DNA from: Escherichia coli
GTDB lineage: Bacteria > Pseudomonadota > Gammaproteobacteria > Enterobacterales > Enterobacteriaceae
NCBI RefSeq assembly: GCF_003334335.1
Contig: NZ_QOWQ01000126.1
Strand: one strand, 5' to 3'
Length of the DNA stretch: 1,058 nucleotides
Shown: positions 44-636 of the stretch, piece after piece
How the letters are laid out: every line of letters begins with the position of its first letter
Position numbering within the stretch: the first letter of the stretch is position 1
Made by a program: the position numbers and the translations under genes
Notes under the pieces: model-generated
What the model saw: the letters and a program-made list of their open reading frames with translations, nothing else
Told to the model about the DNA's origin: nothing
Database searches by the model: none

Positions 44-196
44 CTAATCGCCTGATGCTTTCTTTTTCAGCAACGGGGAAGCAACAACCACCACACCCGC
101 CACCAGCACACCGTCAGCCAGCACTGACATTATCCGGCTGCTGAAGTCCACCATCACCACCAGAAACAGCAGGAGCGCAACCACAGCCAGACGCAT
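44..196 (-). CDS. Hypothetical small hydrophobic membrane peptide, 50 aa, not in the supplied ORF track.
   Basis: Manual translation from ATG 196..194 to TAG 46..44: MRLAVVALLLFLVVMVDFSSRIMSVLADGVLVAGVVVVASPLLKKKASGD. Two hydrophobic stretches and a basic KKK C-terminal tail. The start is 8 nt after the TerB-family stop, consistent with co-transcription or translational coupling. Only a weak SD-like GACGG precedes the ATG, and the region is low-complexity, so it could be a chance ORF. Confidence 0.3.
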   Translation of the reverse strand: MRLAVVALLLFLVVMVDFSSRIMSVLADGVLVAGVVVVASPLLKKKASGD

Positions 197-204
197 TTTT
201 ACCG

Positions 205-636
205 TCACAGATGATTCTCCAGACGAAGGCCCAGAACACCGGCAATCTCTTCCAGCACCTTGCGCTCTTCCGGCTCTATTTCGCCGTCTGCTTCGGCAAT
301 GGCCACCGCCACATCCAGCACGTCTTCCGCTTCACGCGTATCGTGTTTCACATCCTCGATCTCACGTAACGCCGCACGACGACCAATTTTAAAGTTCGTA
401 TCCAGCTGACCGATAATGGTTGCGCTAATCGCATTAATTTCTGACGTAAACGCGGACAAGGTGGGCTGGTTACGTAATACCTGTTCGATCTTCGCTTTCT
501 CGGAAGCCTCACATTCACCATCGGCATAAGCCACCAGGTATGCAGCGTTAATCACTGCTTGTGCCAGATCGCGTTTTTCAAACTTTTTAATTTCCGCAGC
601 CGCTCTGCGGGTTTTCTTTTTGAAGATTCCAAGCAT
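205..636 (-). CDS. TerB-family (tellurite-resistance-like) small acidic protein, 143 aa from the ATG at 636. The track ORF 205..708 extends 24 codons upstream to a GTG with no ribosome-binding site.
   Basis: Open frame from the supplied track. Protein starts MLGIFKKKTRRAAAEIKKFEKRDLAQ. It contains two copies of the TerB-type acidic motif, AYADGECEASEKAKIEQVL and AEADGEIEPEERKVLEEIAGVLGL, which line up with the two 'ADG...E...LG(L/F)' repeats of plasmid TerB as I remember them. Predicted all-helical, highly acidic. Codon usage (CTG, GTG, GCG rich) is enterobacterial. Stop TGA at 207..205. Confidence 0.7.
   Translation of the reverse strand: MLGIFKKKTRRAAAEIKKFEKRDLAQAVINAAYLVAYADGECEASEKAKIEQVLRNQPTLSAFTSEINAISATIIGQLDTNFKIGRRAALREIEDVKHDTREAEDVLDVAVAIAEADGEIEPEERKVLEEIAGVLGLRLENHL

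Follow-up and report, generated by a model that had tools for sequence, protein, structure and literature searches.

Work since the 1990s has connected TerB with resistance to tellurite and colicins and with phage inhibition; several anti-phage systems have joined this list more recently, and we know of no established mechanism for TerB. A phage-borne TerB gene, tciA, is followed in phage P1 by tciB and tciC; the three names come from the P1 GenBank record AF234172, and the annotation of the P1 tci genes is reportedly that of Lobocka et al. in 2004. Here we analyse a stretch of 1,058 nucleotides (nt) of Escherichia coli DNA (RefSeq assembly GCF_003334335.1, contig NZ_QOWQ01000126.1), called the window throughout, in which a TerB-family gene and a small membrane peptide gene form a two-gene unit that is, with near certainty, a tciA-tciB accessory (‘moron’) module of tailed phages carried by a lambdoid E. 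coli prophage. In P1 itself, a CRISPR interference (CRISPRi) screen classified tciA, tciB and tciC as non-essential, transcriptomes of P1vir record expression of the tci genes in lytic infection, and P1-like elements have eight highly variable regions, of which tciABC is one; a published account regards both the role of tciABC and any connection with phage inhibition as unclear.

The pair is already known, named and catalogued (PHROG 632 and 1470; Pfam TerB and DUF3927), and it is a common prophage module. JLK-2012 and other phage records give the same two genes the names tciA and tciB. Of 5426 complete E. coli genomes, 803 contain near-identical tciAB, in as many as 8 copies each, and a fragment of the DUF3927 gene finds a match in 2189. 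The first-pass annotation of this DNA, made from the letters alone, had been aware of no functional description of such a pair. This holds for function, in that the searchable literature contains no functional study for DUF3927, for TerB together with prophages or for TerB together with anti-defence, only homology-based labels; it does not hold for the pair as such, which is named tciA/tciB and catalogued in PHROG, Pfam and RefSeq.

The two coupled genes

Both open reading frames (ORFs) of the unit are genuine genes under purifying selection. All features of the window are on the minus strand, and the two genes are as follows.

205-636 (stop included), minus strand: tciA, encoding a TerB-family protein of 143 amino acids (aa), with its ATG at 636 and its stop codon at 205-207.
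44-208 (stop included), minus strand: tciB, encoding a hydrophobic DUF3927 peptide of 54 aa, whose GTG start overlaps the tciA stop (GTGA).

TciA is a member of the TerB domain family in every feature that could be computed. The Pfam TerB model (PF05099) aligns over its positions 2-109 of 118 with residues 26-138 of the protein (E 2.2e-12), PHROG 632 ‘tellurite resistance’ matches end to end (6.5e-69), and the ter-operon TerB structure of Klebsiella (KP-TerB, PDB 2jxu_A) is matched at E 4.4e-8, with residues 14-137 of the query against 20-144 of the chain. The fold is all-helical and TerB-like, and TciA alone was modelled by AlphaFold2 (AF2) with a predicted template modelling score (pTM) of 0.82. 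An alignment of 17 diverse phage homologues contains two acidic D-x6-E motifs, D39/E46 and D117/E124, in which no homologue departs from E46 or E124, D39 is nearly invariant and D117 is kept in most; it also reveals a very basic N-terminal helix with an invariant K7 and a nearly invariant K18. Duplicated acidic D-x6-E motifs, with metal chelation as their proposed function, were reportedly described by Anantharaman, Iyer and Aravind in 2012 as a feature of the TerB family, and the motifs of TciA are putative metal-binding sites on the same pattern. Within the family, TciA is nearer to the TerB type of P7 and the Erwinia jumbo phage (51-67% identity) than to the P1 type. Selection was assessed on 82 related loci from IMG/VR and public genomes (DNA 85-100% identical, TerB protein 96-100%), in which the ratio of nonsynonymous to synonymous substitution rates (dN/dS) of tciA is 0.03. 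A longer reading of the gene from GTG 708 (167 aa) was rejected: every homologue starts with M-[LF]-G, and a Shine-Dalgarno sequence precedes ATG 636.

The same loci give tciB a dN/dS of 0.24 in its own frame, while four of the other five frames of the small ORF exceed 1.3 and the in-register antisense frame stands at 0.31, as expected. Pfam DUF3927 (PF13064) matches TciB at E 1.7e-18 and PHROG 1470 ‘TciB-like’ at 3.1e-24, and the peptide aligns with TciB of P1, P7, Fostie, Asesino and Pollock. Searching a database of 5.8 billion proteins with TciB as query returned E. coli and Shigella DUF3927 entries alone, and tblastn with the 54-aa peptide gave no match in the phage collection, the low-complexity filter acting on a hydrophobic query being the likely cause; TciB was detected instead by hidden Markov model (HMM) searches of the ORFs in the fetched loci. 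The first-pass annotation had read this part of the window as a two-gene minus-strand unit made of a standalone TerB protein and a small peptide, and had proposed a Pfam check of the one and a conservation check of the other. The ORFs lie where it placed them, and the PF05099 match and the dN/dS and DUF3927 values above bear out both halves of the reading; the start of the peptide, by contrast, had been misplaced, at an ATG lying 8 nt beyond the TerB gene and giving 50 aa. At that codon, position 196, ATG stands in 12 of 73 loci and CTG in 61, and it was rejected as the start. All 73 have a GTG at 208, joined with the TerB stop in GTGA, and RefSeq starts the gene there too. TciB is therefore a protein of 54 aa, translationally coupled to the TerB gene.

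TciB consists of two hydrophobic stretches split by a conserved D21-F-[ST]-[SG]-R, and its conserved residues are R6, D21, S28 and D32-G33 (the latter in the second stretch) and W/F-P45. The placement of its charges suggests a hairpin whose two ends are both cytoplasmic. The C-terminal tail is basic but variable: over the last 8-10 residues past W/F-P (window 44-75 and the equivalent positions in loci L003-L082), unrelated basic tails such as KKKASGD, KRNSLHNA, KKDMPGS and KKKTTGG alternate beside near-identical TciA, a switching that suggests recombination or relaxed constraint at the 3′ end. A duplication of the three residues VVM occurs in the TciB of three loci. In two IMG/VR prophage contigs (L024 and L030), frameshifts break tciB or fuse tciA into it and leave tciA otherwise intact; these copies are occasional decay products among many prophage copies.

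The cargo slot and its transcription signals

The chromosome of E. coli JE86-ST05 contains the window at 100% identity, and RefSeq annotates the pair on this exact sequence. The order of genes there is Q, a small ORF, a DNA methyltransferase, three tRNAs, TerB, DUF3927, a SASA-family carbohydrate esterase, DUF1378, DUF826, holin and lysozyme, and that of an Stx2a phage is methylase, ileZ, argN, argO, stx2A, stx2B and an esterase homologue. Direct comparison of the two gives 93% identity from window position 758 up and 70% from position 7 down. The remaining features of the window are listed here.

8-757, minus strand: cargo cassette of 750 bp, in place of the 1328-bp stx2AB segment of the Stx2a phage.
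637-757, minus strand: cassette-specific leader of tciA, with the Shine-Dalgarno sequence AGGA at 648-645, 8 nt before ATG 636.
766-792, minus strand: intrinsic-terminator-like hairpin (792-775) with a U-tract, between the tRNA array and tciA.
807-883, minus strand: tRNA-Arg (TCT), argO type, in ARAGORN, RefSeq and Stx-phage records.
897-973, minus strand: tRNA-Arg (TCG), argN type, in ARAGORN, RefSeq and Stx-phage records.
983-1058, minus strand: tRNA with a CAT anticodon, called Met by ARAGORN and tRNA-Ile, ileZ type, in RefSeq and Stx-phage records.

With the tRNA array on one flank and the nanS-p-type sialate-esterase and lysis genes on the other, the pair fills the slot in which Stx2 phages carry stx2AB. 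This is the setting that the first-pass annotation had described, a unit immediately downstream of a tRNA array and its terminator and in the cargo position of Stx phages, and it is upheld by the three same-strand tRNAs upstream, the hairpin and U-tract at 792-766, the common flanking genes and the homology breaks at 758 and 7. The likeness to the stx2AB cargo extends over the slot and both flanks (methylase, ileZ-argN-argO and terminator ahead of the cargo, an STnc100-like region and the esterase behind it) and presumably to a reliance on Q-driven late transcription; the contents differ, a secreted toxin in the one case and unrelated intracellular and membrane proteins in the other. In E. coli, the Stx cargo slot holds tciAB more often than toxin genes, and tciAB is its most frequent filling.

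The hairpin at 792-766 is rich in G+C, has a folding energy of -14 kcal/mol (z -3.6 against shuffles) and falls in the part common to Stx2 phages, in which homology begins at 758. Between this terminator and tciA, a promoter scan of the leader found no sigma-70-like promoter on the coding strand. A pR′-like promoter and a tR′-like terminator follow Q in the prophage (locus L002). On the basis of established lambdoid late-operon behaviour, the pair would be transcribed mainly by Q-modified polymerase after induction, like stx2. Just upstream of tRNA-Ile and outside the window, L002 also has a sigma-70-like promoter match at 10096-10068 on the minus strand (TTGAAG, 17-nt spacer, TATTAT); should this promoter before the tRNAs fire in lysogens, silencing of tciAB would fall to the hairpin at 792-766.

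A full-length STnc100 small RNA gene (Rfam RF02076, 143 bits against a gathering threshold of 47; L002 8773-8978, minus strand) separates tciB from the esterase gene, starting 66 nt past the tciB stop and 23 nt outside the low end of the window; a terminator-like hairpin sits in this region (L002 8803-8784), and the 70%-identical flank common with the Stx2a phage covers the element. A 2026 preprint links small RNAs of the STnc100/PasD type and TerB genes in the same prophage neighbourhoods. Over the window itself, the tRNAs are the sole Rfam families found. A sub-threshold match to ‘Plastid-ycf2 5UTR’ at 985-1058 on the plus strand, opposite tRNA-Ile (36 bits against a gathering threshold of 65.7), is almost certainly an artefact of tRNA-like structure. 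The plus-strand ORFs, a terminator-like site at 593-611 and a promoter-like site at 388-417 inside tciA were set aside as chance occurrences, their counts lying within shuffle expectation.

Linked membrane partners in other phages

TciA homologues are present in 130 phage records. The first-pass annotation had asked whether the two genes co-occur across prophages, and they do: a TciB-HMM match stands directly downstream of TciA in 174 of 182 fetched loci, the exceptions among close relatives being a contig end and a frameshift. Adjacent and usually overlapping, the two genes are found in P1 and P7, in the interval between Q and holin of phage Fostie, in Klebsiella phage ST13-OXA48phi12.3 and Actinobacillus phage pPE4, in Pantoea phage LIET2 and Pseudomonas phage nickie, in the virulent jumbo Erwinia phage Asesino and in the virulent N4-like phages Pollock and FSL SP-058. 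The position of the pair just before the holins in Fostie and Actinobacillus pPE4 raised TciB as a candidate holin or lysis regulator, which was rejected as a general explanation because P1, Pollock, SP-058 and Asesino carry the pair well away from their lysis genes.

Other membrane proteins stand beside TerB in several lineages. In the Pseudomonas phages AF, Zuri and Lana, TciB is replaced by a protein of 67-73 aa with a single transmembrane (TM) helix (PHROG 27356), whose gene overlaps the TerB gene by 4 nt in AF and Lana and is separated from it by a 4-nt gap in Zuri. The PHROG 27356 genes (L172 1932-2150, L177 1943-2146 and L185 1938-2153) encode proteins in which an N-terminal TM helix precedes a conserved C-x-W-Y-G-[YW]-Q-T-[ED]-R...G-C-M-V. 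Paracoccus phage Pyei1 has a hydrophobic peptide of 51 aa beside TerB. Vibrio phage MS02 (L181 378-1926) carries a 339-aa TerC/Alx protein by TerB (TIGR03718, 347 bits, cut-off 246), and in Vibrio phage BUCT194 (L184 1-1926) a protein of 339 aa annotated as a membrane protein lies between two TerB paralogues; these two virulent N4-like phages each have what amounts to a miniature ter-like cluster. Directly downstream of TerB in Vibrio phage D520 (L173 1999-3081) is a 360-aa multi-pass protein resembling Ca2+/Na+ antiporters, which matches TIGR00367 at E 4e-30, below the curated cut-off, and recurs in about a dozen near-identical phage records; a phage-encoded cation antiporter adjoining TerB is unusual. 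The recurring unit is TerB plus a membrane protein, mirroring the TerB-TerC pairing of bacterial ter operons.

Transfer RNA genes are frequent neighbours of the pair. Same-strand tRNA genes lie within 1.2 kb of tciA (≤1.2 kb) in 126 of the 182 loci (for example, window 807-1058, L083 2116-2269 and 3701-3776, L086 612-1082, and L180 1711-1789), and the association extends to P1, a jumbo Erwinia phage and a Pseudomonas phage. The sets differ from locus to locus (Ile2-Arg-Arg, Ile2-Arg, Asn-Thr with Ile2 downstream, Thr-Gly, Trp-Cys, and Arg downstream); JLK-2012 has a near-identical tciAB (94% DNA identity) behind a P1-like Asn-Thr-Gly set and not behind Ile-Arg-Arg.

Possible roles and likeness to described systems

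We tentatively favour a model in which tciAB is a lytic-phase, membrane-anchored TerB module acting on membrane or cation state. Under this model, tciA and tciB would be translated as a coupled pair in lytic growth, here from transcripts made by Q-antiterminated RNA polymerase that starts at pR′ and reads through the terminator at 792-766. TciB would insert in the inner membrane, probably folded into a helical hairpin whose two basic ends face the cytoplasm, and would serve as the membrane partner of TciA. The latter is predicted to be a TerB-fold protein of the cytoplasm, in which the N-terminal helix is basic and the two conserved acidic motifs putatively bind metal. Together they would represent a minimal version of the TerB-TerC unit of bacterial ter operons and may adjust or sense the cation or stress state of the inner membrane, so that the infected cell stays productive until programmed lysis. 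Published work, as cited by the papers on TerB-containing defence systems, places TerB at the inner membrane as an amphitropic protein. The lytic timing is suggested by the placement of the pair in three independent settings, the lambdoid late operon, the C1-repressed operon of P1 and the genomes of virulent phages, the last of which never lysogenise; the link to cations or the membrane is suggested by the replacement of TciB by ion transporters in some lineages.

Several observations weigh against this model. The P1 genes tciA, tciB and tciC are dispensable for plaque formation under CRISPRi, and any benefit must therefore be conditional. The cation link comes from partner swaps in a few Vibrio phage lineages only, and the TerB genes of PMBT3 and Cygsa01, the only such cases, have no adjacent membrane partner. 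A fusion of TciA and TciB through a (GGGGS)5 linker, modelled by AF2 with a paired alignment, reached a pTM of 0.55 (against 0.82 for TciA alone) and gave no confident assembly; in this run, which includes no membrane and no contact output, TciB was drawn as one long helix. The promoter-like site before the tRNAs could permit some expression in lysogens if the terminator leaks.

The main rival, which we consider rather doubtful, is exclusion or defence: from the inner membrane, TciA and TciB would stop other phages and colicins at entry or during development, whether in the lysogen or, as with T4 Imm and Sp, at an early stage of lytic infection. It corresponds to the historical reading of ‘Tci’ from the ter operon and has support in the TerB domains of the validated anti-phage systems Shango, Bunzi and Dionysus, the last of which pairs a TerB-like protein with a membrane pore-former, and in the traits of the locus itself, namely a small membrane protein adjoining TerB, a variable cargo slot and, in P1-like elements, a highly variable tciABC region. 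Virulent phages also encode exclusion proteins, as T4 does with imm and sp, so the presence of the pair in lytic phages is compatible with this role. It is set back by comparison with the defence systems themselves (below), by the position of a unit with no detected promoter of its own behind a terminator in a Q-dependent late operon, and by the exchange of TciB for ion transporters (TerC, CaCA-like), which fits homeostasis better than an entry blockade. The first-pass annotation had put forward superinfection exclusion, abortive infection or envelope stress as candidate roles for the pair as phage cargo. A role confined to the lysogen, which the pair would protect, is not favoured by the distribution and regulatory context: it is weakened because TciA has no Bunzi or Shango match, because the pair occurs in obligately virulent phages and because it has a lytic-phase placement in both lambdoids and P1. 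The last two points bear also on the improbable notion of a counter-defence decoy, this time in its favour; here the phage protein would mimic host TerB proteins (of the ter-operon, Shango, Bunzi or Dionysus type) and, by mixed oligomerisation or by occupying their membrane partner, blunt membrane-surveillance immunity during infection. The pair lies in early or middle regions of the virulent genomes, TciA matches bona fide ter-operon TerB over its full length, and the TerB-like DinB is a predicted homodimer; the idea is nevertheless purely inferential, the anti-defence literature yielded no mention of a phage TerB, and a simple decoy leaves the strict linkage to a dedicated membrane peptide unexplained.

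Two further explanations are more improbable still. Lysogenic conversion, with the pair conferring tolerance to tellurite or oxidative stress, has little chance of being correct: it draws on the database name ‘tellurite resistance protein’, on TerB homology and on the promoter-like site upstream of the tRNA array, but TerB is one component of terZABCDE and the other ter genes are not in the locus, the module occurs in virulent phages that never form lysogens, and the unit is preceded by a terminator and has no promoter of its own that was found. We give the least credence to a toxin-antidote or abortive-infection pair, in which TciB would be a small membrane-depolarising toxin restrained by TciA. 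A hydrophobic peptide of 54 aa with conserved intramembrane Asp and Ser residues, tightly coupled to TciA, has the right appearance, but the gene order and coupling make translation of TciB depend on TciA and not the reverse; the fetched loci include frameshifted tciB beside intact tciA but no intact tciB that lacks tciA. In addition, TciB does not resemble known type I toxins, PADLOC gave no hit for it, and knock-down of tciA in P1 is not lethal to the phage.

Returning to the lytic-phase membrane module, tciAB is an ordinary sequence feature and matters as a functional question only. It is the smallest natural TerB unit, two genes in about 600 bp, and it combines strong purifying selection, most strikingly on tciA, with presence in temperate and virulent phages of several genera; it is therefore a convenient entry point to the action of TerB at the membrane. 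A more ambitious proposal, which we hold to be unlikely, is that phage TerB and its interchangeable membrane partner (TciB, PHROG 27356, TerC/Alx or a CaCA-type antiporter) form a widespread minimal phage-borne ‘Ter’ system that would reset divalent-cation flux or membrane state during lytic growth, such that superinfecting phages and colicins are shut out or host TerB-based membrane-surveillance immunity is disarmed. If true, this would be the first defined molecular role for the long-unexplained TerB domain.

Among described systems, the inner-membrane J-domain co-chaperone DjlA, a comparison suggested by the first-pass annotation and carried out here, has a TerB-like segment that aligns with TciA 87-138 (NCBIfam PRK09430, E 1e-6) and likewise combines a TM helix with a TerB-like domain, in one chain in DjlA and in two here. 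Identity with DjlA was rejected: the match, at 28.6 bits, falls below the cut-off of 162 and is confined to the TerB-like segment, and there is no J domain. Shango, Bunzi and Dionysus resemble the pair in combining a TerB domain with a membrane component, and their authors propose a ‘membrane surveillance’ role; they are encoded by bacteria against phages, whereas the pair is encoded by phages, virulent ones included, and architecture and partners differ. Searched with TciA, PADLOC-DB, in a version that predates Dionysus (2025) and hence tests the models of Shango and Bunzi, gave no match to either and only the unrelated candidate PDC-S48 (E 0.003 over 35 residues), and with TciB it gave nothing. 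No partner genes of Shango, Bunzi or Dionysus (for example, the Dionysus DinA/DinC pore-former) are present at the locus, where the 54-aa peptide is the only companion. Of the catalogued TerB defence systems open to comparison, the pair belongs to none.

With the TerB of ter operons (terZABCDE; for example, Klebsiella KP-TerB, PDB 2jxu), TciA has in common its domain, size, fold and acidic motifs, as well as the company of an integral membrane partner, which in Vibrio MS02 and BUCT194 is a TerC/Alx-family protein or a membrane protein of equal size. The two settings differ in that TerC is a multi-pass partner and that of TciA a 54-aa peptide, and in that the latter has a phage carrier and probably lytic-phase expression. 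No terZ, terA, terC, terD or terE gene lies within 9 kb on either side, and the pair is not part of a ter operon.

The closest likeness is to tciA-tciB-tciC of P1. TciA is 42% identical to its P1 counterpart over the full length and TciB 44%, the gene order is the same, the genes are start/stop-adjacent, and both loci have flanking tRNA genes, a DNA methyltransferase upstream and the same PHROG families. In P1, tRNA-Asn/Thr and tRNA-Ile2 flank the genes, which follow the C1-operated Pban promoters and belong to the C1-repressed ban operon, unlike the pair described here, which sits in a Q-dependent lambdoid late operon. There is no tciC in the E. coli locus, where no small TM-containing ORF was found between tciB and the esterase and the STnc100 gene stands instead; tciC is limited to P1 and P7 and so does not define the module. 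By its DUF3927 and PHROG 1470 match, its coupling and its co-conservation, the pair is a member of the phage tciA-tciB module.

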